A stretch of DNA of 64,000 nucleotides from a bacterium (lineage in GTDB: Bacteria > Zhuqueibacterota > Zhuqueibacteria > Residuimicrobiales > Krinioviventaceae), in contig OY843751.1 of assembly GCA_963693055.1 (NCBI GenBank), positions 1,370,072 through 1,434,071 on the forward strand, written 5' to 3'. The translations under genes were made by a program, and so were the position numbers. The notes beneath the pieces were generated by a model, which was not told the DNA's origin, did not search any database, and saw only the letters and a program-made list of their open reading frames with translations. Below are positions 2,414 to 28,950 of the stretch, piece by piece. Each line of letters starts with the position of its first letter. The first letter of the stretch is position 1.

Positions 2414-2451
2414 TAACTATTTTTTCATAACAAAATTTATTTTAGAAAAGT

Positions 2452-2487: not shown

Positions 2488-2505
2488 AAATTTTGTTATA
2501 AAATA

Positions 2506-3846
2506 TTATTTGATAAACAATACTTTTTGTGAATGAGTTGTGTTCCCTGTATTCATCTGAATCAGATAAGTACCGCTTGGGGTAAGCTGACCGCTATCTG
2601 TAGAGCCATTCCACTGGACCGAATATTCTCCTGCAGGCTGTTTTTGGTTAATCAGCTGTTTGATCTGACGACCCAAAACATCATAAACTGTCATGGTAAT
2701 GTGGTTGTCTTTTGCTAAATTATACTTGAGCGTTGTGGTTGGATTAAACGGATTTGGATAGGCTGTAAATAATTGTGTGGAAACAGGCACTGTTTCGTTA
2801 ACAGATGTTGTACCAATAATGTTTATTGTTCCGGTTATGCTGGCTTCGGTGAGACGATAGATGTAATTCATTCCCGCTGAAGCATTCTTGTCTGTATAAA
2901 TATATTGCGATGGGGAAGAGGTAGTACCTTGACCCGTTAATTCCGTATGGGTTTTGTACGAGGCGATCTGCAGCCAATGGGTATCATCGGTTTTACGATC
3001 GATAATAAAACCGAGATTATCTCTTTCGCTGGAAGTGATCCATTCGATATCGATCCCCATTGAGGTAGAAACTGCAGTTAAGGATTGTAAAGCGACAGGC
3101 AAACTTCCATCCAGTCCTGTACCTTGTATGGAAAAGCTAAAGGAACTTTCGTCTTGATCATCGTTGGATATTGTAATTGTTGCCGAGCGTGTTCCCTGTA
3201 CAGTAGGATCAAAGGTTACCTGAAAGGTTGATGAGCTGCCTATACCAATTTCAGAATTGGGATCAAGAGTGACAGAAAAATCACCAGCATGAGTACCGCC
3301 AATCTCAACCAGGGGGGCGCCTGTTAATCCTAATGGCCATACCCCACTGTTAGATATAGTAAAAGAGTGAACTACTGTTTGAGATGTAATATCGGCATCA
3401 CCAAAGTCTGTATTGTCGGTAAGCGATGGTAAAGGATCGTTGTTTTTAATGTTTTGTCCATTACCGGATACAGATATTTCTGGCCAAAGTACAGTAACCA
3501 GAGGAGTGCCGGTTGCTTCACCCCACAAAACCCACCCCGAAGCTGGCGGTTCAGATGGGGGTGCCTCCGGATCTCTATATTCTACGAAATATAAAATATC
3601 ATCATCATCATTATAGTTGGTATCAATATTCCAGTATTCAACGCCGCCGTACCAGTCACAATAGACGTAATTTCCGTCAACGTCCATCCAGTATTTGTAA
3701 CCATCACTATCTACACCTTGTACACTATAGGTGCCGTTTACATTTGCAGGAGTAGTGATTCCGGTAATTTTCAAACCCTGACTGTAAACCTTTAAAGTAG
3801 TAATTATTACAAATACCAGAAAAATTGTTTGATTTAATTTTTTCAT
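2506..3846 (-). CDS. Secreted T9SS cargo protein: N-terminal domain + conserved FN3-like module + Por/T9SS C-terminal sorting domain
   Basis: 446 aa with a signal peptide (MKKLNQTIFLVFVIITTLKVYSQ). It carries the conserved module SLPVALQSLTAV...IEWITSSERDNLGFIIDRKTDD...YIYRL and the CTD LFTAYPNPFNPTTTLKYNLAKDNHITMTVYDVLGRQIK...GTYLIQM...QKVLFIK. Confidence 0.8.
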   Translation of the reverse strand: MKKLNQTIFLVFVIITTLKVYSQGLKITGITTPANVNGTYSVQGVDSDGYKYWMDVDGNYVYCDWYGGVEYWNIDTNYNDDDDILYFVEYRDPEAPPSEPPASGWVLWGEATGTPLVTVLWPEISVSGNGQNIKNNDPLPSLTDNTDFGDADITSQTVVHSFTISNSGVWPLGLTGAPLVEIGGTHAGDFSVTLDPNSEIGIGSSSTFQVTFDPTVQGTRSATITISNDDQDESSFSFSIQGTGLDGSLPVALQSLTAVSTSMGIDIEWITSSERDNLGFIIDRKTDDTHWLQIASYKTHTELTGQGTTSSPSQYIYTDKNASAGMNYIYRLTEASITGTINIIGTTSVNETVPVSTQLFTAYPNPFNPTTTLKYNLAKDNHITMTVYDVLGRQIKQLINQKQPAGEYSVQWNGSTDSGQLTPSGTYLIQMNTGNTTHSQKVLFIK

Positions 3847-3873
3847 TTTCTTTCTCTTGTTTACTAATACTTT

Positions 3874-4431
3874 TTAAAATGGATTTTCACCATTTACACA
3901 AATATAATATCGAAGTACTAGAACCGGTTGAATATTGGAATGTGGTTGATTTTCACCGGACGATATAATTACACCTGGGGCCATTGTTGTTGAAGAGATG
4001 GAAGGAGAGGAATAGTATTTTAGATCATCATACTTTTCATCCATTTCTTTTATTTTTGCAGGATAATTGTTTTCAATTTCCAAGTTGTCTGCATCTTTAT
4101 TAGAGCAAAATACCGAATGATTATGGGAAGGTATTTGAGATTTGGTTAAAGTTACTTCACTAGCCCCCCCTGTTTCTCCCAAAGTACGTGCTGTTAGTTT
4201 CGCTCGTTTACCCACTCCAACCACTACTCTGTCTTTCAGGTTCGGAATTGCAAAATTGTTGACCCCATCTCCTCCGAAATGATTTCCAATTATTGCAAAT
4301 AATTCAGGATATTCTGTAATTTTTAACAGACGGCCATCGCAATATTTCCAATTTGTAGTAATAAATTCTCCGTACAGATTGTAGGGGAATGCTTCTATTG
4401 TACCCATAAAACTGGTTTCACTGGCCATCAT
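3874..4431 (-). CDS. Phage tail collar domain protein (MdpB-like), paralog 3 of a tandem triad
   Basis: Collar-domain signature FAIPNLKDRVVVGVGK...SHNHSV...NIQPVLVLRYYICVNG. The start was moved to ATGATG at 4431/4428, which has an AAGGAG RBS 4 nt upstream; the track ORF's 5' extension to 4476 overlaps the upstream gene. Confidence 0.7.
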   Translation of the reverse strand: MMASETSFMGTIEAFPYNLYGEFITTNWKYCDGRLLKITEYPELFAIIGNHFGGDGVNNFAIPNLKDRVVVGVGKRAKLTARTLGETGGASEVTLTKSQIPSHNHSVFCSNKDADNLEIENNYPAKIKEMDEKYDDLKYYSSPSISSTTMAPGVIISSGENQPHSNIQPVLVLRYYICVNGENPF

Positions 4432-4987
4432 GTTCTCCTTTGTTTTCAGATTCATGCCTTGGGGGAAAGATACCATTTATACATATAATATAATTTAAAC
4501 AGAAAAATGGCATCATATTCTCATGACCCTCGCCATCGCCTGTCATACCAATCATATTTTTTTTCATTAATACATCTTTATCTTTTCTATAAAAATGATA
4601 TTTGTTAGAACTACTGTTTTGTGCCGGATAATTATTTTCAGGATCATTAACCAAACCTGTTCTACCTGGTGTTGTAGTACATTGTAAAAGGTGATTATGT
4701 AATGGCATTTGATCTCTTTCCAATATTATTTTTTCATATCCACCATGATTCCCAAGATTGAAGTTTGACGATTCTCCTTGACCGGTCCCAACCGGTATAC
4801 ATCCGCGCAAATCCGGCAATGCTATTGTAGTTCGGCCATCACCCCCAAAATTGTTGCCGATTAGGGCTGCAAGTGCCTTGTGATCTGAAATGGATAATAG
4901 TGATCCATCACAAATTGCCCAATTGGTAGGGATTTTGGGGCCAGCAAAAAGTGCAATTTCTCCCAGAAAACTGTTTAAACCTGCCAT
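4418..4987 (-). CDS. Phage tail collar domain protein (MdpB-like), paralog 2
   Basis: FAGPKIPTNWAICDGSLLSISDHKALAALIGNNFGGDGRTTIALPDLRGCIPVG...LHNH...NMMPFFCLNYIICINGIFP matches the tail-collar (microcystin-dependent protein) family. Confidence 0.75.
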   Translation of the reverse strand: MAGLNSFLGEIALFAGPKIPTNWAICDGSLLSISDHKALAALIGNNFGGDGRTTIALPDLRGCIPVGTGQGESSNFNLGNHGGYEKIILERDQMPLHNHLLQCTTTPGRTGLVNDPENNYPAQNSSSNKYHFYRKDKDVLMKKNMIGMTGDGEGHENMMPFFCLNYIICINGIFPPRHESENKGEHDGQ

Positions 4988-5003
4988 TTTTTATCTCCTG
5001 AAT

Positions 5004-5531
5004 TTATTCAACTGGTTCCTGTTCATGAGGATATGTACCTTCAACACATATGATATAATGCAAAGCCAAAAAAGGCTGCATGTTAGAGTGCCCGTTGATA
5101 CCACCTTCCTGGCTTATTATCTCATCTCCCATTGTTTTGTTATCATGTTCTGCGCAATAACATAAAATGTTTTCAAGGTTTGGTTTTGCGAAAATATTGT
5201 TTTGGGGCTCGAAAGATTTTGTTGTATCACTAACATCACAAAATACAGAGTGGCTATGAGACGGTGTATGATATTTTTGTAGATTAGATTTTTCTTTTCC
5301 CAGATAGGTTGCAAGATTATAGTTGCCTTCTCCCATTACTGCTCTGCCATTTAGGTTAGGTAAAGCAAAATATTCATGACCGTCCCCTCCATATTTTATA
5401 TGAATAATAGAATACAGTTTTGTGTATTTTACAATCTTTAGCATATCACCATTACAGAACATCCAGTTCTTGGGTAGATAACTCCCGGCATAAAGTTTAA
5501 TGGTTCCAATAAAATCATTGTTTTCTTGCAT
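5004..5531 (-). CDS. Phage tail collar domain protein (MdpB-like), paralog 1
   Basis: YAGSYLPKNWMFCNGDMLKIVKYTKLYSIIHIKYGGDGHEYFALPNLNGRAVMG...SHSHSV...NMQPFLALHYIICVEGTYP. Confidence 0.75.
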   Translation of the reverse strand: MQENNDFIGTIKLYAGSYLPKNWMFCNGDMLKIVKYTKLYSIIHIKYGGDGHEYFALPNLNGRAVMGEGNYNLATYLGKEKSNLQKYHTPSHSHSVFCDVSDTTKSFEPQNNIFAKPNLENILCYCAEHDNKTMGDEIISQEGGINGHSNMQPFLALHYIICVEGTYPHEQEPVE

Positions 5532-5849
5532 AAACCCTCCTGTTTGATTTTTGAATTTGGAATTGTCAAACCAGTCCCCTTAATTTTGCCCGGTTTTATT
5601 AACAGGAATTGTATTGGAGGGACCAATTTATTCATATACAAATGCAACTGAATTGATGTAAAGATATGGAATATATTGATGCCCTAACAAGCACATATGT
5701 TTCAAAATGCAGAGATTATGTTGCATTTGAGATGTTGAAAGGTGATTTTTCGAGAAAAAATTGTATTTTGCGGATAATTGGTTTATGAATTGAAAAACTT
5801 TAATTCAGGGTTCTGATAGTATTTAAATTGTGAATGGTGTGTAAAGAAA

Positions 5850-5879
5850 CCTCCCCGGAATCATCGATTCCAGGGAGGG
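5850..5879 (-). terminator. Candidate rho-independent terminator of 5886..7061
   Basis: Inverted repeat CCTCCCCGGAATC-atc-GATTCCAGGGAGG, with one G.U position on the minus-strand RNA, 7 nt downstream of the minus-strand stop and followed on that strand by GUUUCUUUAC. Confidence 0.45.
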
Positions 5880-5885
5880 AGATAG

Positions 5886-7061
5886 TTATTTTAAAAGTTG
5901 AATTTTCTGGCTCTGATGGTAACGTGCTGTATGCATACGAACCAGATAAGTCCCGCTTGCTGCTGTTACGCCTGAATCCGTTGAGCCGTCCCATTGGATG
6001 GTATATTCACCGGCGGCCTGGTGCTGATCGGCCAGCATTTTGATCTGGCGGCCCAATATGTCATAAACAGCGAGAGTCATATGGCTGTCTATCGCTAACT
6101 GGTATTTGAGCATTGTGGTTGGATTAAAAGGATTGGGATACGCTGCGAACAACTGTGTAGTTAAAGGCACAGTTGATTTAGCAGATGTTGTTCCGATCTC
6201 GTTCCTGTCACCGTTTATATTGACTTCAAACAATCGATAACTGTAATCTGCTCCTGCTGTAATATTTGCATCCGTAAAACTGTAATCAGACGGGGAAGAC
6301 GTTGTTCCTTGTCCCGCCATTCTGTCATCGGATTGGTATGAAGCGATCTTTTGCCAGTCGGATTTATCTGTTTTGCGCTCGATGATGAACCCGAGATTAT
6401 CGGATTCGCTGGCGGTGGTCCATTGCAACTCTACAGAATTGCCTTTACCTATTGCTGAAAAGGAGAGCAGTTCAACGGGCAGGGAGGCGTCAGCTTCAAA
6501 CTGAAAATCATCTATCATTAAATAAATAACATTGTTTGTACCATAAGGTTCTATAATAAATTCAAGTTCATCCAATGTGTATGATGAATAACTGCTTAAA
6601 TCGATATATGTGAAATAATTATTTGTAGAAGTGGTGTTGAATTCGTTATAATTGATTGTATGGGTAAACTGTGTACCTCCATCGAGTTTTCCTCTTATTA
6701 ATATATTGTTATATTTTACAATCTGCTTTGAGGTATTGAGGGGAATGATATACAATTCATGAACTTTAAAATCGCTGGTAGTGTTGGTAAATGAACCCAC
6801 AGTTCCACCCCCGTATACCGGGTTGGCAAAATTAGATATAAAATAATCATCATCAAATCCCCAGCCGGCCTTGTAATCCACTTCTAACTGGCTGGTAACG
6901 TTGAAATTTAATGTTCCTTCCGAAAAGGATTTGTCACCATCGGAATGATCTGCAAATTTTTCAGTAGTTTGTGAATAAACACTTGATACAAATAAAAGCA
7001 GGGATAAAAAAATGTAGACTATAAGCGCTCTCTTTATTGAAAAATTTGAAAAATATTTCAT
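5886..7061 (-). CDS. Secreted T9SS cargo protein (N-terminal beta-rich domain + FN3-like module + T9SS CTD)
   Basis: 391 aa with a signal peptide. Module ASLPVELLSFSAIGKGNSVELQWTTASESDNLGFIIERKTDKSDW...YSYRLFEVNINGDRNEIGTTS and CTD LFAAYPNPFNPTTMLKYQLAIDSHMTLAVYDILGRQIKMLADQHQAAGEYTIQWDGSTDSG. The last ~220 nt are ~97% identical at the DNA level to the 3' end of 8496..11114. Confidence 0.8.
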   Translation of the reverse strand: MKYFSNFSIKRALIVYIFLSLLLFVSSVYSQTTEKFADHSDGDKSFSEGTLNFNVTSQLEVDYKAGWGFDDDYFISNFANPVYGGGTVGSFTNTTSDFKVHELYIIPLNTSKQIVKYNNILIRGKLDGGTQFTHTINYNEFNTTSTNNYFTYIDLSSYSSYTLDELEFIIEPYGTNNVIYLMIDDFQFEADASLPVELLSFSAIGKGNSVELQWTTASESDNLGFIIERKTDKSDWQKIASYQSDDRMAGQGTTSSPSDYSFTDANITAGADYSYRLFEVNINGDRNEIGTTSAKSTVPLTTQLFAAYPNPFNPTTMLKYQLAIDSHMTLAVYDILGRQIKMLADQHQAAGEYTIQWDGSTDSGVTAASGTYLVRMHTARYHQSQKIQLLK

Positions 7062-7171
7062 TTTGCCTCCTGTACAGTTTTTTTTAGGGTTTTTTGTCCC
7101 AATTTGAAATTTTATGAAATTTGTAATATTATACCAATAAAAAATATTTTTTCATCAGACATGAAAAATGA

Positions 7172-8050
7172 TAAGATAAAGTTACTTTATAAGCATAATT
7201 TTTTGTAACTGGTTAAGACCATTTGCCTGCATGCGCACCAGGTACGTGCCGCTTGGCGCGGCAGCTCCCGAGTCCATTGTTCCGTTTCATTGAATAGAAT
7301 ATTCACCTGCTGATTGTTCAGCATTTTAATCTGTCTGCCCAGTACGTTATATACTGCCAACGTTACGTGGCTATCTTTTGCCAGATTATAATTCAGGGTT
7401 GTTGACGGATTGTAGTACACCGCGAACAACTGTGTAGTTACAGGCACAGTTGATTTATCAGATGTTGTACCTATCTCGTTTCTGTCACCGTTTATATTGA
7501 CTTCGGAGAGGCGATAATCGTTATCCATTCCAGCGGTTACATCGGTATCGCTATAGCTGTATTGTGACGAGGAGGAGGTGGTGCCTTTTCCCACGAGCGC
7601 GTTATCGGTTTGGTAAGATGCAATCTTTTGCCAGTCGGATTTATCTATTTTGCGCTCGATGATGAAACCGAGATTGTCGGATTCGCTGGCGGTGGTCCAT
7701 TGCAACTCGACTAAATTGTTTTTACCTGCAGCAGAGAAGGAAAGCAGTTCAACGGGCAGGGAGGCGTCCGTAACAGTACCACTTCCACTAACTGGGGCAA
7801 AATTTAAACCTAAAGGTGAGGCAGGTGCAGTACCTACTACATAGTATGGAGTATAATAAAATAATATATCCTCTTTATCATTAGTGTTATCATCTATAAT
7901 CCAGTAATCATAGGTGCCGTTTGCGGCAATAGGAGATGTTATACCGGAAACGGTCAAATCTCCAGCCCAAAGCGGTAAATTCGATCCTAATAGTAGAAAT
8001 AAAAACAATAGGTGATCCGATCTTAATTGTAATTTTTGTAACAATTTCAT
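7172..8050 (-). pseudogene. Decayed paralog of the FN3-module/T9SS-CTD family (frameshift plus in-frame TGA at the conserved CTD Trp)
   Basis: The track ORF 7187..8050 reads out of frame after GRQIKML. In the conserved frame the sequence reads AEQSAGEYSIQ*NGTMDSGAAAPSGTYLVRMQANGLNQLQKIMLIK*, with TGA (7288-7290) where paralogs have TGG (IQW). A frameshift sits near 7325, and the PNPFNP motif is degenerated to LFAVYYNPSTTLNY. Confidence 0.65.
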
Positions 8051-8398
8051 ATTTACTACTTTTTTTGTTTCGAGAATATTTTAGTATGATACGTATGATT
8101 TTTGATCAGGGTTAAAATTAAGGTTAGAGCAAGTGCATAAATTTGACACTTGAATTTTATTATAAATTTCCTGAATGCATATACTAATGCTTATCATGTT
8201 CCACGTATTATCTTTAGTATTGTAGAAACTTTTGTCTATTAACGTGTCGTAATGTTACTTGTCGTACAGATAAATGTACAGTAATATGTAAATTTTGATC
8301 AAATTGATATTGTTTTTCTATGGTAAGGTAAAGTTTGTTATTGATTAATATAAAAATCTAATAATGAAAAGTCAATGTTTAAAAAGGATTTACGTAAA

Positions 8399-8431
8399 AA
8401 AAGCCCTTCCTGGAAATTCCGAAAGGGCTTT
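8399..8431 (-). terminator. Rho-independent terminator of 8496..11114
   Basis: AAAGCCCTT-cctggaaattccg-AAGGGCTTT hairpin followed on the minus strand by a U7 run; downstream of the minus-strand stop at 8496. Confidence 0.55.
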
Positions 8432-8495
8432 AATTATTTTGAAAAAAGTAAGTCGGGATATTAGTATATCTAATCCATGACGAGATGGAGTTGAA

Positions 8496-11114
8496 TTACT
8501 TTATTAATAATATTTTTTGTATCTGGTTAAATCCATTTGCCTGCATTTTTACCAGATATGTTCCGCTTGCTACTGTTACGCCTGAATCCGTTGAGCCGTC
8601 CCATTGGATGGTATATTCACCGGCAGCCTGGTGCTGATCGGCCAGCATTTTGATCTGGCGGCCCAATATGTCATAAACAGCGAGAGTCATATGGCTGTCT
8701 ATCGCTAACTGGTATTTGATCATTGTGGTTGGATTAAAAGGATTGGGATACGCCGCGAATAACTGTGTAGTTGTGGGGATTGCGCTCATATCTACAGCCG
8801 TTGTCGAAATAACGGATTTTAGTCCGGTTGTGCTGACTTGGAAGAGGCGATAATCGTAATCCATTCCAGCGGTTACATCGGTATCGCTATAGCTGTATTG
8901 TGACGAAGAGGAAGCAGTGCCTTTTCCCACGAGCGCGTTATTGGATTGGTAGGAAGCGATCTGCTGCCAGTCGGATTTATCTGTTTTGCGCTCAATGATA
9001 AAGCCCAGGTTGTCAATTTCGCTGGCTGTGGCCCAGGTCAGTTCAACGGCGCTGTTTTTAGGTGTGGCGTTAAACGCGACCAGTTCAACAGGCAGCGAGG
9101 CGTCGCCACCGGAGAGTGGACCGTTAGAGATAGAGCTTGCAAGCGTGCCGTTACTCAGGGTCAGGCTGGCATCATTCACCAATACGCCCTGCACAACGCC
9201 CGTGGCCGCGCCTGAAACATCTCCGGTGAGAAAATAGTAAACACCACCGGTGCTGATGGCGCTGGTGAATCCTGAGAAAGAAGCGGAATTTTCATCGCCG
9301 GGATCGGAAACGACCGTGGCGCCGAGCTGGGTATCGGCCCCGGACTCAAAAGTAGCGTCCGTGGATGACCACAGTTTAAGGTTTGAGAGTCCGGTACGGG
9401 TACCGTTGAGTTGAATAGAGGCGGCGGTCAGGTCTGCACCTGCCACATCGCCGGTCAATTGAAACCGCCCCAGGGCTTGGTCCGTACTGCCTTGTGAAAC
9501 AACGGGTGAAAAACCGCTGCCGTTGGTAAAGGTAATGGTAGCACTGTTTGTGGTTACATTGTTAGGATTTCCAGTCTCTGACCCGGTCAAATAAAGCTCT
9601 GACCCGGCGCCCTGATTATATTCGCAAACATGTATACGATAGGTCGTTCCCGGGGCAAGGCCGCTGACAGATTCGCTTGTGCCCGGTCCGTTATAAATAC
9701 AATACCAGCCGGAAGAACCAATCTGGCTACCAGAGCCGAATGTTGTGTTGGCAGTGTATGTGCTGTTATCTACCGGACTTGCAGTGCCGGAAGATGTAGC
9801 TGCCATAAACACGGCACAATTGGCGCCGTCTCCCCGGGTCCAGGATATTGTTGCGCTTGCTGCCGTCAGGTTGGAAAAAGTAACATCCGTGGCCTGGCTT
9901 GTTGGCGCGGCAATTAACTCAAAAGCCCCAATATCTGCATTTGTTCCACAGGGACGAGAGTAACCCCGCTGGTCTGTAGGATAAACACCGTTATAAGAAT
10001 TTCCACCTTCTGGAATGGCATTGATTGCGGCGCTGCCGGTTAAAAGAGCATGAGTTTTTGTACTTCCTCCATTGTTTGCCAAAGTGCCAATGTTTAATGT
10101 GCCGCTTTGTATATCACCGGTCCCGGTTAAAGAAGCCAAAACCCCATTACAAAGATTGTATCCTTGTGAATTAAGAGAGCCACTGCCACTGGTATTTAAA
10201 TTTGCACCTGTAGAAGCCGTGTTGTTGGCAAGAATTGTGTTTTTCATATTAACGGTGGCAGTTCTTAAATTAATACCACCACCGTTTGTTGCCGAGTTGT
10301 TAACAATAGTACACGAATTTATGTTTATTGTGTTATTGGCCGTTCCATCAGAATAAGCGCCCCCTTGATTGGTGGCACTATTACCTGATAGTGTAGAGTT
10401 TTTTATATTAACATTCCCGTCATACCAATAGATACCACCACCTATATCAGCTGACTGGTTATTACTTATCGTGCAATTGGTAACAGTTAAACTTCCGGTA
10501 GATTGATACTGTCCAATGGCAGCGCCCATGTCGGCATTATTATTTTCAAGGGTACAATTTTCTATTGTAATACTTCCGTTATAAGAGCCCACAGCGCCTC
10601 CCCTGTCTGCTGCTGTGTTCCCTGAAAAAACAGAGTTTGTTATTTGCACAGTTCCATTATAATTATCAACAGCTCCTCCGCTCCCGCTGCCTGTAACCTG
10701 GTTCCCGGAAAAAAAACAGTTATTTATAGTCAATGTTCCTAGATTGTTCTCTATTCCGGCACCATAATTTGATACAAAGCCATTTATTATAGATAAATTA
10801 TTAATCTCAACAGTAGCACTAACTTCTATTACTCTGGAAGAATTTCCTCCGCTAATTGTTAGTTGAGAAGCACCGGGTCCGTTAATTGTTAGGTTCTTGG
10901 AAATAGAAAGTTGAGAAGAAAGAGTAATTGTACCGGTAACAGAAAAATCAATATCATCGCCCGGAGATGCATCGGTAATGGCCTGCCTTAAAGAACCAGC
11001 ATTGGAATCGTTTGTATTCGTAACAGTAATAGTTGCAGCTAAAGTCTGTTGATAGATACCAAGAAAAACCAGACAGATTATGAAAAGACTTTTTTTTAAG
11101 ATGATTTTTATCAT
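8496..11114 (-). CDS. Large secreted adhesin-like protein: PMP-like right-handed beta-helix repeats + FN3 + FN3-like module + T9SS CTD
   Basis: 872 aa with a signal peptide. Repeated GGAV/GGAI...FSGN motifs (polymorphic outer-membrane-protein / parallel beta-helix type). An FN3 segment (ISWTRGDGANCAVFMAATSSGTASPVDNSTYTANT...TTYRIHVCEYN) is nearly identical at DNA level to 11386..13410. Module ASLPVELVAFNATPKNSAVELTWATASEIDNLGFIIERK plus CTD. Confidence 0.85.
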   Translation of the reverse strand: MIKIILKKSLFIICLVFLGIYQQTLAATITVTNTNDSNAGSLRQAITDASPGDDIDFSVTGTITLSSQLSISKNLTINGPGASQLTISGGNSSRVIEVSATVEINNLSIINGFVSNYGAGIENNLGTLTINNCFFSGNQVTGSGSGGAVDNYNGTVQITNSVFSGNTAADRGGAVGSYNGSITIENCTLENNNADMGAAIGQYQSTGSLTVTNCTISNNQSADIGGGIYWYDGNVNIKNSTLSGNSATNQGGAYSDGTANNTININSCTIVNNSATNGGGINLRTATVNMKNTILANNTASTGANLNTSGSGSLNSQGYNLCNGVLASLTGTGDIQSGTLNIGTLANNGGSTKTHALLTGSAAINAIPEGGNSYNGVYPTDQRGYSRPCGTNADIGAFELIAAPTSQATDVTFSNLTAASATISWTRGDGANCAVFMAATSSGTASPVDNSTYTANTTFGSGSQIGSSGWYCIYNGPGTSESVSGLAPGTTYRIHVCEYNQGAGSELYLTGSETGNPNNVTTNSATITFTNGSGFSPVVSQGSTDQALGRFQLTGDVAGADLTAASIQLNGTRTGLSNLKLWSSTDATFESGADTQLGATVVSDPGDENSASFSGFTSAISTGGVYYFLTGDVSGAATGVVQGVLVNDASLTLSNGTLASSISNGPLSGGDASLPVELVAFNATPKNSAVELTWATASEIDNLGFIIERKTDKSDWQQIASYQSNNALVGKGTASSSSQYSYSDTDVTAGMDYDYRLFQVSTTGLKSVISTTAVDMSAIPTTTQLFAAYPNPFNPTTMIKYQLAIDSHMTLAVYDILGRQIKMLADQHQAAGEYTIQWDGSTDSGVTVASGTYLVKMQANGFNQIQKILLIK

Positions 11115-11385
11115 TTTTGCTCCTATGGAATTTTGGGTTTAAACTGCAATCACACATAAAGTAAAAATTAATATACAATGATTCAATGAAAAATATAAAG
11201 CAGTCAGTTTTATAATACTCTGTTGTAAATGTAAGCATTGTTGGGGACTGAAACCAAGTCTGTAAGTTGCAAAAGGCCGATGCTATGTTGCATTAAAGAA
11301 AAGTAGGGAAAAATTTGTCAAGTAAGCGGTGAAAAATATGGGGGGGACCGGCAAATGGGCGCCAGTCCCTAACAAAAGCAAGAAT

Positions 11386-13410
11386 TTATTTCATCAAGAT
11401 AATTTTTTGTAACTGCGACCGGCCACCTGCCTGCAAACGCACCAGGTAGGCGCCGCTGGGCGCAGCCAGTCCGGCGTTTGTTGTGCCGTTCCAGGTGGCT
11501 GCGTACTCACCCGCAGATTGTTGTTGGTTAACCAATTGTTTGACCTGGCGGCCCAACACATCGTACACGGCCAGGGTCACGTGACTGTCGTTTGCCAACT
11601 GGTATTTGAGTGTGGTCTGCGGATTAAACGGATTGGGATACGCCGCGAACAGTTGCGTGGTGGTTGGCGTTACAGCGGCAGTAACCTCAGTTGTGGCAAG
11701 AGCATTAACCTGACCATTCACATCCACATCAGACAGTCGATATGTATAGCTGCCGCCCGCTGTCACATCTTTGTCGGTATAGCTGTATAGTTTTGGCGAG
11801 GAAGCAGTGCCTTTTCCCACGAGCGCGTTATTGGATTGGTAGGAAGCGATCTGCTGCCAGTCGGATTTATCTGTTTTGCGCTCAATGATAAAGCCCAGGT
11901 TGTCGGTTTCACTGGCAGTGGTCCATTCCACTGCAACACTATTGCCTTTTTTTGTGGCTGAAAAAGAAACAAGCTCAACCGGCAGGGAAGCGTCGCCATT
12001 AGAAAGCGGGGCGTTGGTTATAGTACCGGACAGTGTACCGGAGGCAATGGTCAGGCTGCTGTTATTGACGAGCACACCCTGCACGACACCGGTAGCATCA
12101 GAGGCCACATCACCGGTAAGAAAATAATAAACATCGCTGGTACCTATTGCGCTGGTAAAACTTGCAAAAGTCGCCGTGCTGCCGTCTCCGGGATCAGCAG
12201 TCACAGTGGCCCCGAGTTGTGTATCCGAGCCGAATGCTGCATCAGCAGACATCCATAGTTTCAGGTTCGAGAGACCTGTACGGGTGCCGTTGAGCTGGAT
12301 GGATGCATCTGTGAGTGACGCGCCTGCAACATCACCGGCCAACTGGAAGCGACCTAAAACCTGATCAGTACTGCCTTTGGTGATGTCGGGAGCAAAACCG
12401 CTGCCGTCTGTGAATGTTACGCTGGCATCGGCTGTGATTACATTATCAGGATTATCGGTGCCGGTTGTAGTCATATATACTTCGGAACCGGGGCCCCCGT
12501 TATATTCGCAAACATGTACACGATAGGTTGTATTTAAACTTAATCCACTGACAGATACACTCGTTCCTGTACCATTATAAACACAATACCAGCCGCTGGA
12601 ACCGACTTGCGTTCCTGAACCGAATGCTGTATTAGCAGTGTAGGTGCTGTTATCTACCGGACTTGCAGTGCCGGAAGATGTAGCTGCCATAAACACGGCA
12701 CAATTGGCGCCGTCTCCCCGGGTCCAGCTAATGGTTGTTCCGGAAGCAGAAGTACTGGAAAATCCTACGTTTGAAGCCTGGGTGGTGGGGGCGGGGGTGA
12801 CTGCCGTACCTATACTAATATTATTAAAGCCTGCTTTGATTTTAGTGCCGGAAACGTTTGTAATTCTTACTTCATCCACATTGCCAAAAATGCTGGTAGA
12901 AAAATCTGACAAGGTAAATGTTTCCTCATGCGAGGTGCCATTGACGCTCAAGTTTACCGAACCCGTGGATACATTGTCTTTGAATCCTTCAAAGTTTGAT
13001 GTGGCCTGGCTGTTGTCAAACAAATAATCCGTGATGTAAATGGATTGAAAGCTGAATTCACTTCCGTCATTGCTCATTATAACGATTACTGTAGGTAAAT
13101 TATTTTCTTCAACAATCGTATTCCCGGTTGTAACATCAATAGGTATCACCTGGTCGTGCGTCATAAACATATATTCTTTTGAATAAAAAACAAAACTACC
13201 GGTATTGGTGCGGGACGTAGCATCCGCGTCTGTCATAGCACCAAAAACATTCAATTGTATGCCGGGAATGTCATTTGAAAAAATGCCGTCATGAAGAATT
13301 TGTCCTATATTGGTCTCATCTGTCCCTGTAAACGCAACGGTGCCGGTTTGGGCGAATAGGGATGTGGAATTGAATAGTACCAAGATTGATAAGCAGATTA
13401 ACTTTTTCAT
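11386..13410 (-). CDS. Secreted adhesin-like protein: N-terminal domain + FN3 + FN3-like module + T9SS CTD (paralog of 8496..11114)
   Basis: 674 aa with signal peptide MKKLICLSILVLFNSTSLFAQ. It shares an identical nucleotide block (12643-12725 = 9763-9845) with 8496..11114. Module ASLPVELVSFSATKKGNSVAVEWTTASETDNLGFIIERK; CTD LFAAYPNPFNPQTTLKYQLANDSHVTLAVYDVLGRQVK. Confidence 0.85.
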   Translation of the reverse strand: MKKLICLSILVLFNSTSLFAQTGTVAFTGTDETNIGQILHDGIFSNDIPGIQLNVFGAMTDADATSRTNTGSFVFYSKEYMFMTHDQVIPIDVTTGNTIVEENNLPTVIVIMSNDGSEFSFQSIYITDYLFDNSQATSNFEGFKDNVSTGSVNLSVNGTSHEETFTLSDFSTSIFGNVDEVRITNVSGTKIKAGFNNISIGTAVTPAPTTQASNVGFSSTSASGTTISWTRGDGANCAVFMAATSSGTASPVDNSTYTANTAFGSGTQVGSSGWYCVYNGTGTSVSVSGLSLNTTYRVHVCEYNGGPGSEVYMTTTGTDNPDNVITADASVTFTDGSGFAPDITKGSTDQVLGRFQLAGDVAGASLTDASIQLNGTRTGLSNLKLWMSADAAFGSDTQLGATVTADPGDGSTATFASFTSAIGTSDVYYFLTGDVASDATGVVQGVLVNNSSLTIASGTLSGTITNAPLSNGDASLPVELVSFSATKKGNSVAVEWTTASETDNLGFIIERKTDKSDWQQIASYQSNNALVGKGTASSPKLYSYTDKDVTAGGSYTYRLSDVDVNGQVNALATTEVTAAVTPTTTQLFAAYPNPFNPQTTLKYQLANDSHVTLAVYDVLGRQVKQLVNQQQSAGEYAATWNGTTNAGLAAPSGAYLVRLQAGGRSQLQKIILMK

Positions 13411-13594
13411 AAGAACCTCATTTGTTTAGAATAGCTATTTATAATGACGGTTAGTTATTGGTAATTTCAAAACATAAATATCACAATTTTTATGCCAGGT
13501 TTTTTAGTTTGCGTTTCGGAGAGAAGAAAGAAAAGAGAACCCCCAAAGTCCTTTGTTTAGGGCTTTGAGGGTTGTAAAAGTTTTTTATGATTTT

Positions 13595-15418
13595 TTACTT
13601 CATCAATAGGATCTTTTGTACCTGTGATGTATTACCTGCTTGAAATCTTGTCAGGTACATTCCGCTTGGAGCTGCTGTACCGGAATTAGTTGTACCGTCC
13701 CAGGAGACAGATTGTTCTCCGGCTGTTTGCTGCCCGCTGACCAGTGTTTTGATCTTGCGACCCAGAACGTCGTAAACAGCCAATGTTACATGGCTGTCTT
13801 TTGCCAGATTATAATTCAGTGTTGTAGTGGGATTGAATGGATTGGGATACGCCGCAAACAGTTGCGTGCTGGTTGGTGTTCTAGTTATTTCAACAGTTGT
13901 CGTTGATAGAACATTCACCTGACCACTGGTACTGACTTCTGACAAGCGATAGGAATATTGGTTGTCAGGTAAAACAGAGGTATCGTTATAGCTGTAATGT
14001 GTAGATGATTGTTTGGCGCCTTGTCCTGTTAATTGCTCGTTTTGCAAATAAGAAGCAATCTGCTGCCATTGTGTGTTTTTGGATTTGCGCTCGATGATAA
14101 ATCCCAGGTTGTCAATTTCGCTGGCTGTGGTCCATTCCAGGTGAATTGTGTTGGCTTTGTATGATGCTGTAAAGGAGACCAGTTCCACGGGTAATGCATC
14201 GTCACCGACTTTGTACTCATATGTACCCATGTCGATGGTGCCCGCCGCTCCTGTGGTTTTATCCAGTTTTCGGTCGTAGCCGTTACCGCGGATATCATAA
14301 CTTTCAGTGCAATAGCTGTCGTTACCGGTATCGGCACAGGGAGAAATACCGGAAATACTGTAGGGATGATCTGCATTGTTGGATACACCAACAAATAGTG
14401 GATTGGTAGTGATGCAATTATTGGTGGCCGTTAGCGTGCCGCCATTATTATAAATGTCACCTGCATCGTTTCCATAGCAGCTATAATTTAAAATGGGCGC
14501 TCCTGTGTCTATATAGATTTCATTACCATTGGTAGTACTTGAATTACCCCAAATGATACAGTTATATAATTCAGGATCAGAATTGTTCGAGTATATTCCT
14601 CCTCCATTGTCCGCGGAATTACCAGTAATGGTTACATTTGTCATTTGCATGGCTGATGATAACAAACATATACTGCCACCGTCTCCATCACATGTGTTAT
14701 CACTGATCAATCCATTGATGAGAATGGGGGCGCCGGATGTATTATAAATTGCACCACCGGATACTGTTGCATAATTGCCAGTGAATGAGCAGTTGGTCAT
14801 GCTTAAACCTGATCTTGTGTTAAGTATGGCACCACCGTATTTCGCTTCATTGTTTTTAAAAGTAACATTTACAAGCGTTGGTGTGCAGGTATTATTATAC
14901 ATTCCACCACCATAAACGTGCTGTGGTTGCTCTGAGTCAACATAATATGCCATGCCATCACTGATGGTTACACCATCAAGTACAGCTGTATTATCCAGGC
15001 TGATACTATTATGATAGAATACATGGTAACAATGATCACCGCCCAGGTCGCCACTGAGAATGGTCTCATTGTCTTGTCCCGGGGCATAATTGGTGCGTTC
15101 GCTAACAACAGATTCTGTCCCTGCGAATCCACCATAGACAGTTACACCATTGATCAATCTGAAATGGTTATAAGTCGATCTGTTTCCACCAGCAAGGCCA
15201 TAGTCGTAGGAGGGGACGTAGGTGCCTTTGGCGATCCAGATTTCATCGGGAGATGCCGCAACGTTCAAGGCTGATTGTAATGAGGTGTAGGCGTGGGTCC
15301 AACTGCTACCATCATCGTTTCCAGATGCATTGATATCAACATAGATGGTGGCGCTCCATAGGGGTAGAACAATAGCAAGAGAAACAAGAACCATGAGTAT
15401 AGTCTTTTTCATGATCAA
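13595..15418 (-). CDS. Secreted PMP-like beta-helix protein + FN3-like module + T9SS CTD
   Basis: 607 aa with a signal peptide. Parallel beta-helix/PMP-type repeats (GGAILNTRSGLSMTNCSFTGN...SGGAIYNTSG...GGSICLL); module ALPVELVSFTASYKANTIHLEWTTASEIDNLGFIIERK; CTD LFAAYPNPFNPTTTLNYNLAKDSHVTLAVYDVLGRKIK. Confidence 0.85.
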   Translation of the reverse strand: MIMKKTILMVLVSLAIVLPLWSATIYVDINASGNDDGSSWTHAYTSLQSALNVAASPDEIWIAKGTYVPSYDYGLAGGNRSTYNHFRLINGVTVYGGFAGTESVVSERTNYAPGQDNETILSGDLGGDHCYHVFYHNSISLDNTAVLDGVTISDGMAYYVDSEQPQHVYGGGMYNNTCTPTLVNVTFKNNEAKYGGAILNTRSGLSMTNCSFTGNYATVSGGAIYNTSGAPILINGLISDNTCDGDGGSICLLSSAMQMTNVTITGNSADNGGGIYSNNSDPELYNCIIWGNSSTTNGNEIYIDTGAPILNYSCYGNDAGDIYNNGGTLTATNNCITTNPLFVGVSNNADHPYSISGISPCADTGNDSYCTESYDIRGNGYDRKLDKTTGAAGTIDMGTYEYKVGDDALPVELVSFTASYKANTIHLEWTTASEIDNLGFIIERKSKNTQWQQIASYLQNEQLTGQGAKQSSTHYSYNDTSVLPDNQYSYRLSEVSTSGQVNVLSTTTVEITRTPTSTQLFAAYPNPFNPTTTLNYNLAKDSHVTLAVYDVLGRKIKTLVSGQQTAGEQSVSWDGTTNSGTAAPSGMYLTRFQAGNTSQVQKILLMK

Positions 15419-15936
15419 TTCCTTGTTGTTTTGATTCGCAAACTGTTTTTTTATATGGAGATTTGAGAAAAGTAATATTGAATATAGAAAACTAGATTGT
15501 AAAAATCAAATCTAAATCATTAATTATTTTATAAATATGTTTTTTTTGATTTTGTCTCCAAATCGCATTTGGATCGGAGAGTTGTTGGTTTTTTCAAGAT
15601 TATGACCTTTTTCAATACTCACTTTGAGGCTAGGTTCCGATTATTAGAACCTGCAAATGAGATACTGTCTGCGAACGGTCTGTTTATGTTATGCTGAGAT
15701 TTCGTAAACATGAATTTATTAAAACTTTCAACTGGACAAAATATTAAAGGTTGTCCGAAATTATTTGATACGTATCTGGATAAATGTCTCAATTTCTCAT
15801 TTATCCATTTGCAGAATAGTTTCAATTCAGGTTATAAATAGTGTCTTTCGGGAATGTAGCCCTTGCTTTCAAATTCCAAAGTTTGTAATTTAAAAATTAT
15901 AGATTTTAATTATTTTTTTGTAAAGGAGGGTTATAA

Positions 15937-17982
15937 ATGCAACATTCTCTTTTTCGTTTCTTTCTTTTGGGTACTCTATTCTTTTCATTATCTCTTGTTG
16001 CTGGCCCGTCTCAATCGCGACCTTTTACAGTGCATGAACTTTTAGCCATGGAGCGTATTGGAGCCCCTCAGGCTTCACCTGATGGACAGCAAATCGTTTT
16101 TTCCATTCGTAAAACCAATCTTGAAAAAAACAAAGGAGAATATGATCTCTATCTTGTGGATATAAACGGCAATTCTTTCAAAAGGCTGACGACCCATCCT
16201 TCTATTGATACCAGTCCCTGCTGGTCTATGGATGGGCAATGGATTTATTTTCTCTCTGCGCGGTCTGAATTTATGCAGGTGTGGCGAATTAGGCCGGACG
16301 GGGGCGAAGCGGAAAGAGTAACAAGCCTTGACCTGGATATTAACGATTATACAGTCGTTCCTTCTGGCAAAGGTCTGCTCCTTTCCATTGATGTATTCCC
16401 CGGTAAATCCATTCAGGAAACAAGTGAGGTGCTGCAAGCGCATGAAAACAGTAAAGCCACCGGTAAACTTTATAATCAGGCACTGTTCCGTCATTGGGAT
16501 GTGTGGGCAGATGGACGTTTTGCCCATTTGTTTTACCTTGATTTTGAAACAATGACACCTGTTGATCTGATGAGTGACATGCAGGCTAATGCTCCAACTA
16601 AACCCTGGGGGGGAATGGAAGAGATTGCATTTACCCCTGATGAACAAAGTGTCATTTTTACCGCCAAAGATGTGGGTGACCAGTCCGCCTGGTCTACAAA
16701 TTATGATTTGTTCAAGGTACCGCTCGATGGTACCCAGGCCCCGGAATGCCTGACTGCAACAAATAAAGCTTGGGATACCCAGCCGACGTTCTCCCCGGAC
16801 GGAAAAACCCTGGCGTATCTCGCCATGGCCAGGCCTGGCTTTGAAGCAGACCAATACCATATTATGTTGCGGGATTGGCAAACCGGTACTGCCAGAGAAC
16901 TTGGAAGTACCTGGGACCGTTCTCCATCTGCTATTTTCTGGAGTCCGGATGGTAAGATTCTATTTGCGGTTGCCGAAAATCTGGGACAGCTCGCCCTCTT
17001 TGCCATTGATGTAAAGTCAGAAAAAGTAACTCCGGTGATTGAACAGGGAACCATTCGCTCTCCGGTATTTGCGGGCGAACGCATTGTATTTGGACTGGAT
17101 CACTTAAAGTCTCCGGTTGAGCTCTATTCCATACGTCCTGATGGCAAGGACCGACAACAGATCACTCATGTAAATGACGAACTTGTAAAGCAGATTGCCT
17201 GGGGTGAACCAGAACAGTTTACTTTTAAGGGATGGAATAACGAGACAGTTTATGGCTATGTTGTTAAACCAGCAAATTTTGATCCTGCAAAAGAATATCC
17301 TGTGGCATTTTTAATTCACGGCGGACCGCAAGGGTCTTTTGGTAATGATTTTCACTATCGTTGGAATCCACAAGCCTATGCAGGGGCAGGGTACGCCGCT
17401 GTAATGATCGATTTTCATGGGTCTACAGGATACGGACAGGCCTTTACCGATGCTATCCGTGAAAACTGGGGTAGCCGGCCTTTTGAGGATTTGCAAAAAG
17501 GACTTGCCGCAGCCCTGGTGAAATATCCGTGGCTAGATGGGGACAAGGTGGGCGCTCTTGGTGCATCCTATGGAGGCTATATGATCAACTGGATTGCGGG
17601 AAACTGGCCTGACCGGTTCAAGTGTTTGGTCAATCATGATGGTAATTTTGATATTCGTATGGCGTATTACGATACAGAAGAACTCTGGTTTCCCGAGTGG
17701 GAGCATGGTGGTACACCCTGGGAACGTTCTGAAGTTTATGAACTACATAATCCCGTAAATCATGTAGACAAATGGAAAACACCCATGCTCGTTGTTCATG
17801 GTGAACTGGATTATCGTGTTCCTGTCACCCAGGGTATTGGAGCGTTCAACGCTTTACAGCGCAAAGACATTCCCAGTCAGTTCCTCTGTTTCCCGGATGA
17901 AAACCACTGGGTGCTCAAACCTCACAACTCTATCTTGTGGCACAACACGGTGATTGGCTGGTTGGACAAGTGGCTAAAGTAG
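15937..17982 (+). CDS. S9 family serine peptidase (prolyl oligopeptidase / acylaminoacyl-peptidase-like), secreted
   Basis: 681 aa. Signal peptide, N-terminal beta-propeller region, C-terminal alpha/beta-hydrolase domain with GASYGGYM (GxSxG), HGELDYRVP and DENHW catalytic-triad context. AAAGGAGGG RBS 8 nt upstream. Confidence 0.85.
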   Translation: MQHSLFRFFLLGTLFFSLSLVAGPSQSRPFTVHELLAMERIGAPQASPDGQQIVFSIRKTNLEKNKGEYDLYLVDINGNSFKRLTTHPSIDTSPCWSMDGQWIYFLSARSEFMQVWRIRPDGGEAERVTSLDLDINDYTVVPSGKGLLLSIDVFPGKSIQETSEVLQAHENSKATGKLYNQALFRHWDVWADGRFAHLFYLDFETMTPVDLMSDMQANAPTKPWGGMEEIAFTPDEQSVIFTAKDVGDQSAWSTNYDLFKVPLDGTQAPECLTATNKAWDTQPTFSPDGKTLAYLAMARPGFEADQYHIMLRDWQTGTARELGSTWDRSPSAIFWSPDGKILFAVAENLGQLALFAIDVKSEKVTPVIEQGTIRSPVFAGERIVFGLDHLKSPVELYSIRPDGKDRQQITHVNDELVKQIAWGEPEQFTFKGWNNETVYGYVVKPANFDPAKEYPVAFLIHGGPQGSFGNDFHYRWNPQAYAGAGYAAVMIDFHGSTGYGQAFTDAIRENWGSRPFEDLQKGLAAALVKYPWLDGDKVGALGASYGGYMINWIAGNWPDRFKCLVNHDGNFDIRMAYYDTEELWFPEWEHGGTPWERSEVYELHNPVNHVDKWKTPMLVVHGELDYRVPVTQGIGAFNALQRKDIPSQFLCFPDENHWVLKPHNSILWHNTVIGWLDKWLK

Positions 17983-18027
17983 GTTGTAAATAATTGATTC
18001 ACTGCCGGGGGCGTTAGTTAATAAAAT

Positions 18028-18056
18028 TTGCCAGGCACATTTCTAGTGCCTGGCAA
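18028..18056. terminator. Bidirectional rho-independent terminator between convergent genes
   Basis: Perfect 11-bp inverted repeat TTGCCAGGCAC-atttcta-GTGCCTGGCAA between the 15937..17982(+) stop and the 18075..20000(-) stop, with AT-rich flanks. Confidence 0.6.
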
Positions 18057-18074
18057 TTGTAATTCAAACGTCTG

Positions 18075-20000
18075 TTATTTAATCATCATTACTTTTTGTA
18101 TAGAGGAACAATTACCTGCCTGCAAACGCACCAGGTAGGTACCGCTGGGTGCAGCTACCCCTGAATTGGTAGATCCATCCCATTCCACCTGATATTCAGC
18201 GGCGGATTGCTGCTGATTTACCAGTGTTTTAATTTCACATCCGAGTATATCATAAACGATCAGGGAAACATGACTGTCCGTTACCAGTTGATATTTCAAT
18301 GTAGTAGACGGATTAAAGGGATTGGGATAAGCCGCAAACAATTGTGTGGTCATTGGAATTGATTGAACATCTATGGATGTTGTACCAATTTCTGTTTGAA
18401 CTCCGTCTGTACTGACTTCCATCAGACGATAGGTATAACTTGATCCACTGGTTACATTTGCATCGGTTATGCGGTAATGTGACAGGGAGGAGGTTGTGCC
18501 TTGTCCGGTCAGTTCAGAGTGGGTTTGGTAGGATGCGATCTGCTTATAATCGAAATTTTCTGTACTGCGTTCAATGATGAATCCCAGATTGTCTTTTTCG
18601 CAGGCAGTGGACCATGTCAATTCTATAGAGTCTTTATCGTATTTAGCGGTAAAGGATTGCAGCTTGACCGGTAATGCTGTGTCGCTGCCGTTTTGCCATC
18701 CCAGAAAGGGGTAACCGTCATTAATGGTCCCGGAAGGGTCAATGTCCCAAATATCCTGACTGCCATTGGTAATTTCAATACTAAAGTCCCAACCAGCATA
18801 GGTAAATGTGGAAAGCGTTTTCATTTTTTCTGTGGTTTTGGGGGAAGCAGAATTTGTATCGTTTTGTCCTGTGGTTTCAGAATCATAAAAATTTGCACTT
18901 GCTGATATAGTCGTAGCCAGGGTAATGCCACCAGTAACGCTTCCGGTAACTGTACCCTTTGCGTAGCAATAGTGAATTTCGCTTTCCCCGTATACATTAC
19001 AGGCCAGAGCGGTTATCCGGTATGTTCCGAATGTATTTCCTGTTGCATAACAATTGTTAATATCACAATTATCACAATAGCCAATCAATCCACCAATATC
19101 TGCATGGCCAGTAACCTTACCTGTTGCGAAACACTGATTGATATTCGTATCTTTTGTCCAGCCGATCAGTCCACCAAGATAGTCTTGACCACTGACCGCT
19201 CCTGTAGCAGAGCATCTGGTCACTTGGCCATGATTCGTACCTATCAATCCACCTACATTATCAGTGGTGGCATTGACGCTGCCGGAAGCGTGGCAATCTG
19301 TGATTTGCCCGTAAAAACGTCCTGCCAGGCCGCCTATACTGGTGCCATTTTGCACATTCACACTGCTGCTACAGTTACTGATGATGGCATCTACATATAC
19401 GCCACCAATTATTCCTCCGGCAAGTGCGTCAGAACAAGTAACAGTTCCGGATAAAGTACAACCGGATATAGTGGTGTTTTCATAAACAGAACCAACCAGA
19501 CCTCCCACAAATCCATAAGCAGAGATATTTAAGCTTTCCATTTTAATATTATTTAATTCAGCGTTGGTAACATCCCCAAATAAACCGGCATAATTTGACT
19601 CGGGTCTGTTTATATACAGACCCGTGATGGTGAAACCTTGACCGTCATAGGTGCCTTCAAAAGGTGATAAAATAGTGCCAATGGGGCTAAAACCGGCGTA
19701 TCCGCCGTCTCCATCGGGATTCAGGGTTGCGCTTGCAGAGGCGTCAATATTATCGGTTTGTGTAAAGTGACGTGACCAGATAGTTGATGTTGTGCTGATC
19801 CATATCAGATGGTCAAATTCAGAAATAAGATACGGATCATAATATGCACCTGTGCCGGGCGGCTGCGTACCCGCAGCCAATAAAGGGCCTGTAAATGTCA
19901 GAGTAATGCAAAATATAGACAGATATTTTTTACTTTTGAAAAATATTCTGTGGTTTGTGATAAGAAAAGAGTTGATAAAATATGATAATAAAATTTTCAT
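18075..20000 (-). CDS. Secreted GLUG-repeat protein + FN3-like module + T9SS CTD
   Basis: 641 aa. Multiple GGLVG/GGLIG/GGLAG repeats (GLUG motif, as in IgA1-protease-like and Bacteroides surface proteins); module ALPVKLQSFTAKYDKDSIELTWSTACEKDNLGFIIERS; CTD LFAAYPNPFNPSTTLKYQLVTDSHVSLIVYDILGCEIK. Confidence 0.8.
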   Translation of the reverse strand: MKILLSYFINSFLITNHRIFFKSKKYLSIFCITLTFTGPLLAAGTQPPGTGAYYDPYLISEFDHLIWISTTSTIWSRHFTQTDNIDASASATLNPDGDGGYAGFSPIGTILSPFEGTYDGQGFTITGLYINRPESNYAGLFGDVTNAELNNIKMESLNISAYGFVGGLVGSVYENTTISGCTLSGTVTCSDALAGGIIGGVYVDAIISNCSSSVNVQNGTSIGGLAGRFYGQITDCHASGSVNATTDNVGGLIGTNHGQVTRCSATGAVSGQDYLGGLIGWTKDTNINQCFATGKVTGHADIGGLIGYCDNCDINNCYATGNTFGTYRITALACNVYGESEIHYCYAKGTVTGSVTGGITLATTISASANFYDSETTGQNDTNSASPKTTEKMKTLSTFTYAGWDFSIEITNGSQDIWDIDPSGTINDGYPFLGWQNGSDTALPVKLQSFTAKYDKDSIELTWSTACEKDNLGFIIERSTENFDYKQIASYQTHSELTGQGTTSSLSHYRITDANVTSGSSYTYRLMEVSTDGVQTEIGTTSIDVQSIPMTTQLFAAYPNPFNPSTTLKYQLVTDSHVSLIVYDILGCEIKTLVNQQQSAAEYQVEWDGSTNSGVAAPSGTYLVRLQAGNCSSIQKVMMIK

Positions 20001-25802: not shown

Positions 25803-25855
25803 ACTATCCTTTCTACTTGATTTATACAGGTCTTCAGGAAACCCTTTTTGTAAAA

Positions 25856-28916: not shown

Positions 28917-28950
28917 TCTGTACCTCATTATTTATACATTAGCTCAACAG

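Follow-up and report, generated by a model that had tools for sequence, protein, structure and literature searches.

Evidence for recombination among the shared tails of a putative type IX secretion cargo family in a KSB1 bacterium

How do neighbouring genes that encode otherwise unrelated proteins come to end in the same protein sequence and, in places, in the same DNA? We addressed this question for a 64-kb stretch (the window) of contig OY843751.1 (6.5 Mb) from a KSB1 bacterium, in which an original prediction had listed seven minus-strand genes that each fuse a common module to the C-terminal domain (CTD) of type IX secretion system (T9SS) cargo. An open reading frame survey recovered all seven (g1–g7, at 2.5–20 kb), and a hidden Markov model (HMM) built from homologs added an eighth member outside the range then covered (g8; Table 1). 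The tail common to g1–g7 is ~207 aa long (~0.6 kb of DNA) and comprises a ~113-aa module of fibronectin type III (FN3) fold and a ~85-aa type A T9SS CTD. Alignment of the seven tails (A1) gave a mean column identity of 68% and 53 invariant columns, including LPV.L, DNLGFII.R, IASY and YRL, and the CTD was matched in six of the seven, with g3 giving a weak score. This tail is the sole sequence common to all of the paralogs (whole-tail nucleotide identity of 59–76%), and the passengers are mutually unrelated. We read the locus as a recombining multigene family of T9SS type A CTD cargo in which conversion of the tails is combined with turnover of passenger units, and assign this reading a probability of roughly 0.8.

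Short blocks of DNA, most of them within the tails, are far more similar between particular gene pairs than the tails are overall (Table 1). These tracts are 48–222 nt long and 0–7% diverged (0–3% in the best-defined tracts). The two blocks noted originally are real, although they had been placed 10 and 3 nt out of register: as first paired, 5937–6160 and 8557–8780 are 27% identical and 9763–9845 and 12643–12725 are 17% identical, and Table 1 gives the corrected coordinates. The exact g4–g5 block in the module and the exact core of the g3–g4 tract had not been reported. Each block is identical in one paralog pair only, with the other six paralogs differing at the same columns. The probability that exact runs of this length arise by chance is roughly 1e-10 to 1e-16, which, together with the permutation result given below (global p ≤ 0.0005), excludes chance. 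The tracts are confined to the conserved tail and an fn3 domain common to g4 and g5; none falls in passenger sequence unique to one gene, where there is no homologous partner for recombination.

Along the tail alignment, the nearest paralog flips abruptly: g4 equals g5 at columns 102–204, g3 at columns 208–255 and g2 at columns ~345–540. The module of g3, originally described (as part of 7172–8050) as matching g4 in its centre and g2 at its end, has precisely this structure and is g2-like at its start as well. GENECONV-style permutation of polymorphic sites was globally significant for g4/g5, g2/g4 and g3/g4 and gave p values of ~0.03–0.04 for g2/g5 and g2/g3; the longest runs of identical polymorphic sites were 63–90. 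Significant tracts were thus detected in g2, g3, g4 and g5, and none by this permutation in g1, g6 and g7. The pairwise homoplasy index (PHI), calculated over 272 informative sites, was 0.504 compared with 0.595 ± 0.007 in permuted alignments (p ≤ 0.001). Nei–Gojobori analysis showed that the proportion of synonymous differences (pS) is 0–0.1 within the tracts versus 0.6–0.9 (saturated) in the rest of the same genes. In the DNLGFIIERK stretch, outside the tracts, the proportion of nonsynonymous differences (pN) is only 0.03–0.08, yet pS is 0.8–0.9. Given that synonymous sites are saturated even where the protein is this constrained, protein-level constraint cannot account for the DNA identity. 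Gene conversion, as originally suggested, is the supported reading of the blocks: the low-pS tracts are pair-specific, the GENECONV-type and PHI tests are significant, and orthologous and paralogous relationships are incongruent, as the following comparison illustrates.

The GroEL encoded in the window (34392–36026) assigns its genome to candidate division KSB1, and a search with this protein also yielded a congeneric genome, in which a 3.64-Mb contig (ctg94855l; ENA ERZ21869602) encodes a GroEL of 99% amino acid identity. The main locus in this relative was anchored via the S9-peptidase cluster mate, and two of its loci (L080 and L081) jointly span the syntenic region from an AraC-type regulator to past GroEL. 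Flanking single-copy genes are 86–93% identical in nucleotides between the two genomes. The g1 gene and its counterpart r1 are clean orthologs (passenger, 84.5%; tail, 88.9%), with r1 the nearest sequence in nearly every 30-nt window. For two other pairs, identity drops sharply from the passenger to the tail: 88.4% versus 65.4% for g6/r6 (Fisher p = 3e-30) and 92.8% versus 77.3% for g8/h2 (Fisher p = 6e-13). Because these passengers retain ortholog-level identity and the tails are far less similar, we conclude that the tails have been overwritten since the genomes split.

The two genomes also differ in which genes they carry. The slot occupied in the window by g2, g3, g4 and g5 holds a single gene with a LamG passenger (rL) in the relative. 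A colinear block (L081 431–6604 = window 288–6442) starts at the regulator and ends within the tail of the LamG gene and g2, respectively, reaching ~560 nt into that tail at low, paralog-level identity; the LamG gene is the nearest neighbour to the g2 tail over the last ~60 nt only. Synteny restarts within g6/r6, 67 nt from the 3′ end. As colinearity ends in the g2 tail and restarts in the g6 tail, both edges of the variable segment lie in tails. The best match of the g2 passenger is h1, a neighbour of GroEL in that genome, with 75.6% identity along the full gene. Between GroEL and a hybrid histidine kinase, the relative has h1–h4 and an rve-family transposase, and the window has only g8, which combines the passenger of h2 and the 3′ flank of h4 with a tail pieced together from h1–h4 sequences. 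The g7 gene is missing from the relative as a clean indel of ~2.1 kb, and 100%-identical blocks are also present among the relative's own tails. Over this 30-kb region, the window and the relative contain eight and seven family genes, respectively, in different combinations. The relative thus supports the variable repertoire with swapped passengers that had been proposed: its passengers and tails are paired differently, its gene number differs and the breakpoints fall in tails. The rve transposase (L080 16250–17056, between h3 and h4) may have contributed to the local rearrangement, given that it is absent from the syntenic site in the window.

The tail acts as a substrate for recombination between paralogs. 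Short non-reciprocal tracts patch the tails and drive their concerted evolution, most strongly among the adjacent genes g2, g3, g4 and g5, and comparison with the relative shows that larger exchanges, which occur occasionally and break within tails, add or duplicate, delete and re-pair passenger–tail units. The enzymology is probably general RecA-type homologous recombination, as the window has neither a dedicated recombinase nor a reverse transcriptase nor any invertible element. The net outcome is a surface-protein repertoire that turns over fast between close relatives while its secretion tail evolves in concert.

The alternative that survives best is that the tails were scrambled by allelic replacement with DNA from related strains rather than by conversion within one genome. 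Imported alleles could likewise produce tails that differ far more than their passengers, as in g6/r6 and g8/h2, and T9SS cargo genes of Porphyromonas gingivalis vary by allelic exchange (PMC5266723). However, the best-defined tracts have a 97–100% identical partner that lies no more than a few kb away in the same genome, which makes a within-genome source the simplest for these tracts and an external one improbable. Some of the older mosaic segments, those without an identifiable donor (for example, alignment columns 60–210 of g8), may nevertheless owe something to imported DNA.

Dedicated programmed variation, whether from silent cassettes (of the pilE/pilS, vlsE or msp2 type), a diversity-generating retroelement or invertase shuffling, is very unlikely. 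It would suit a family that encodes putative surface proteins, has a promoter-proximal pseudogene (g3) that could serve as a silent donor and, in the relative, has an rve transposase among its copies. Yet neither a recombinase, an invertase nor a reverse transcriptase domain was detected in the 64-kb window, no inverted repeats convincingly bracket a promoter, and the mismatches in the g2–g4 tract involve all base types without the adenine specificity of a retroelement. Unlike silent-cassette loci (including tprK), in which one expression site is served by an array of promoterless partial donors and conversion targets variable regions, the family consists of complete genes other than g3, the single pseudogene among the eight. 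All eight have their own start and a signal-peptide-like N terminus (by eye; basic then hydrophobic, with A-x-A or S-Q-like sites), and terminator-like hairpins follow g1, g2, g4 and g7. Moreover, it is the conserved tail and the common fn3 domain, not the variable regions, that contain the tracts. What the locus displays is concerted evolution of the tail and cassette-like gain and loss, as opposed to programmed antigenic variation. A 17-nt inverted pair at 15585/16117, one arm of which is inside the peptidase gene, was judged to be a chance occurrence. A scan for sigma-70 promoters was uninformative (71 found versus 45 expected), and this promoter type is probably not applicable to the lineage.

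That the blocks are an assembly or polishing artefact, in which mis-assigned paralogous reads homogenized or chimerized the repeat copies, has a very small probability in our estimation. Both contigs are multi-megabase (6.5 Mb and 3.6 Mb), which suggests long reads that would span repeats of 50–600 nt, and the tracts have sharp edges in surroundings of 65–76% identity, where reads would not cross-map. The separately assembled contig of the relative shows the same kind of mosaic, and exact blocks between tandem paralogs are also found in unrelated metagenome-assembled genomes (MAGs). The weakest alternative, that the blocks were kept identical by strong purifying selection or by an element conserved at the nucleotide level (an embedded RNA or antisense gene), can draw on a tail that is conserved at the protein level, with DNLGFIIERK invariant or nearly so, but is close to negligible given that the blocks are pair-specific, that synonymous sites are identical within them and saturated in the equally constrained DNLGFIIERK stretch, that PHI detects distance-clustered phylogenetic incompatibility and that Rfam returned no matches.

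Several points weigh against the reading of a recombining cargo family. The source is of metagenome type and neither assembly comes with inspectable reads, which precludes direct verification of the blocks. The family is not uniformly recombining, since g1, g6 and g7 lack significant within-genome tracts, and the tracts give neither the direction from donor to recipient nor the timing of transfer. A single related genome was found for comparison, so expansion and loss are not separable and the events are not polarized. With regard to function, the core T9SS genes (SprA/Sov, PorK/L/M/N, PorV and PorU) are absent from the 64-kb window, and it is therefore the CTD itself that points to secretion. 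From established T9SS biology and domain content, the CTD would direct T9SS export and then be removed on surface attachment, the FN3 module may form a surface- or membrane-proximal stalk, and the passengers are adhesin-like at the level of their domains.

The assignment of the CTD is based on TIGR04183, which matched g1, g2, g4, g5, g6 and g7 at 31–44 bits (cut-off, 23), and on PF18962, which matched the CTDs of the family at 25.9–35.4 bits (cut-off, 27; g2 falls just under); FlgD_ig was also matched, and the g8 CTD scored 37.3 bits. The g3 tail is the sole copy without a proper match (18.1 bits, a failing score, and no Pfam CTD match). Structurally, the CTD has the beta-sandwich fold of solved T9SS CTDs and the module that of a seven-strand FN3 beta-sandwich; the AlphaFold 2 model of the g5 tail has a predicted local distance difference test (pLDDT) score of 93.8. 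By sequence, the module belongs to no family above threshold in Pfam or NCBIfam. The best match was fn3 (PF00041) for g2 (20.2 bits, E = 7e-4; cut-off, 25), the modules of the other genes had no fn3 match in Pfam, and a PDB sequence search with the profile returned only CTD/FlgD matches. A module-only search nevertheless recovered 43,937 cluster representatives at E ≤ 1e-3 (4,328 at 1e-10). In the top single-copy matches, the module is placed ~85–90 residues from the C terminus, and some proteins carry up to ten tandem copies. Named homologs that combine the module and CTD are from KSB1, Marinimicrobia, Ignavibacteria and Chlorobiales, lineages of the Fibrobacteres–Chlorobi–Bacteroidetes (FCB) group, and a scan of genome contigs found relatives at ≤46% amino acid identity. 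Tandem clusters with exact blocks between paralogs are also present in Ignavibacteria MAGs; one (L011) comprises four genes that share 86% identity across 3.1 kb, including an exact run of 480 nt, and a second (L014) has the same pattern.

The passengers largely agree with the domains first proposed for them. The GLUG repeats of g7 were matched. Polymorphic membrane protein (PMP)-like passengers had been proposed for g4 and g6. This stands for g6, which matches Chlam_PMP (PF02415; 26.6 bits, cut-off 20.6) and TIGR01376 and has GGA(I/L/V)/FxxN repeats, but not for g4, which has no PMP match and carries choice_anch_Q instead (its GGA-repeat region has similar motifs by eye and was read in the same way as a beta-helix). 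Searches of Pfam and NCBIfam revealed no autotransporter domain in the family, the C termini of which are T9SS CTDs rather than the beta-barrel of type V autotransporters. An fn3 domain had been proposed for g4 and g5 and is clear in the former (E = 9.5e-6) and weak in the latter (E = 1e-3). These two genes have a common architecture over ~470 C-terminal residues. Between fn3 and the module, they (and no other member) carry a ~190-aa domain (9120–9700 and 12010–12580; GSTDQ.LGRFQL.GDVAGA...IQLNGTRTGLSNLKLW) without a match in Pfam or NCBIfam. The pseudogene g3 (open reading frame 7187–8050, with the true 3′ end at 7182) has lost 9 nt from the PNPFNP motif and, with a shift of frame, another 10 nt, and it contains an in-frame TGA. 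A 95-nt element with an intrinsic terminator hairpin (AAAGCCCTTTCGGAA...GGGCTTTTTTT) occurs in the 3′ flank of g4 (8376–8469) and in that of groEL (34309–34400), with 79% conservation.

Table 1. Family genes and near-identical tracts in the 64-kb window (window coordinates).
Feature	Position	Strand	Composition or location	Basis or identity
g1	2506..3846	-	Signal-peptide-like N terminus, choice-of-anchor D / HYDIN-type Ig passenger, module, CTD	Pfam and NCBIfam
g2	5886..7061	-	Unannotated passenger (closest to h1 of the relative), module, CTD; tail mosaic of g3-like and g4-like segments	
g3	7182..8050	-	Pseudogene; short passenger, mosaic tail	Three-frame translation and alignment
g4	8496..11114	-	GGA-repeat region, choice-of-anchor Q, fn3, ~190-aa domain common with g5, module, CTD	
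g5	11386..13410	-	Unannotated N-terminal domain, fn3, domain shared with g4, module (~11644-11979), CTD (~11389-11637)	
g6	13595..15418	-	Passenger with one PMP repeat (putative beta-helix), module, CTD	
g7	18075..20000	-	GLUG-repeat passenger (four GLUG motifs), module, CTD	
g8	33113..34210	-	Unannotated passenger; tail a mosaic of h1-h4 of the relative	HMM matches
Tract g2/g4	5941-6162 = 8551-8772	-	Covers CTD	215/222 (96.8%)
Tract g4/g5	8908-9014 = 11798-11904	-	Module	107/107 identical
Tract g4/g5	9760-9843 = 12644-12727	-	Common fn3 domain	84/84 exact
Tract g3/g4	7500-7605 vs 8836-8941	-		99/106; exact core 7523-7570 = 8859-8906, 48/48

Elsewhere in the window, two FG-GAP/dockerin paralogs (20235–22340 and 23715–25964) are 81% identical overall, but contain a 615-nt block (20148–20762 / 23628–24242) of 98.2% identity with a 282-nt exact run. 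This block covers the 3′ end of the gene and the terminator and repeats the signature of conversion in a family unrelated to the first; the relative has one copy. Interleaved with these are five tandem Fib_succ_major (PF09603) paralogs (22394–23344, 25856–26839, 26935–27936, 27981–28928 and 29369–30067), against one copy there in the relative (L081 14364–15329). Between g1 and g2 (3874–5531) are three tandem, partly overlapping genes whose products each have a phage tail collar domain (PF07484), one of which also weakly matches Gp10_C; they are conserved in the relative and have no other phage genes nearby. A ~100-nt non-coding repeat (40648–40738, 41767–41869 and 42740–42847; 76–89% identical) flanks genes for small outer-membrane beta-barrel and hypothetical proteins, is multi-copy in the relative (L080 1–1079) and belongs to no Rfam family. 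Genes for CsgE-like and CsgG-like curli secretion proteins were found at 61165–63640, in a KSB1 genome.

The within-genome tracts and the between-species comparison together directly mark the T9SS sorting tail as a hot spot of inter-paralog recombination in an uncultivated phylum of the FCB group. They make a clean case, open to quantification, in which a secretion signal evolves in concert while its passengers turn over like cassettes. Repertoires of putative surface cargo differ sharply even between ~90% identical genomes (FG-GAP genes number two versus one and Fib_succ_major genes five versus one). For annotators, the C-terminal halves of T9SS cargo genes are unsafe for assigning orthology, and a very widespread pre-CTD module of FN3 fold (~44,000 representative clusters) is missed at Pfam and NCBIfam thresholds. 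A more tentative proposal, which we consider rather unlikely, is that the tail has been selected as a portable 'recombination handle' as well as a secretion signal. In that case, the 3′ homology of 0.6 kb would allow promoter–passenger units to be captured, duplicated, deleted and moved between loci, giving a cassette-exchange system for the surface proteome of KSB1 and other FCB-group bacteria, and the spread of the module, nearly always just upstream of a CTD, would reflect selection for evolvability in addition to secretion.

Gene conversion and modular rearrangement are already well established in bacterial surface-protein families, including those of pathogens. Our literature search found no paper linking KSB1 with T9SS and nothing specific on paralogs that combine FN3 and a CTD. 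The nearest precedent is the RgpA/Kgp/HagA group of P. gingivalis, which shows combinatorial modularity of adhesin domains and for which recombination, gene conversion and allelic exchange have been proposed as origins of surface-protein diversity (Dashper et al. 2017, PMC5266723). Like the KSB1 genes, these are paralogs encoding T9SS CTD cargo. In P. gingivalis, however, adhesin (CAD/DUF2436) modules of the passenger are shuffled and the diversity is between strains of a pathogen, whereas in the KSB1 family the recombining unit is the FN3–CTD tail, the passengers are mutually unrelated and the bacterium is environmental.

In the babA/babB/sabA genes of Helicobacter pylori, the opa genes of Neisseria and the tpr genes of Treponema, general homologous recombination transfers short non-reciprocal tracts between diverged paralogs, and the resulting mosaic genes and chimeras lead a given locus to express a different variable domain. 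The KSB1 family resembles these in its short inter-paralog tracts and mosaic genes. They belong to host-associated pathogens under immune selection, and several of them conserve a membrane beta-barrel; what the KSB1 family conserves is a predicted cleavable secretion signal with a putative stalk domain, and nothing in it points to a host. Rhs and CdiA loci use conserved homology to recombine variable modules onto a secretion-competent scaffold, and degraded or orphan copies adjoin their intact genes. There, variability resides in a C-terminal toxin tip and the orphans are promoterless, whereas the variable KSB1 passenger is N-terminal with its own start and a putative signal peptide and the family has no toxin–immunity pairs; a handle-like tail would be functionally analogous to the swapping of orphan modules with the polarity reversed. 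The chlamydial Pmp proteins, finally, are likewise a multigene surface family, and g6 carries their GGA(I/L/V)-type repeat, but Pmps, as type V autotransporters, end in a beta-barrel, whereas the KSB1 proteins end in a type A T9SS CTD.

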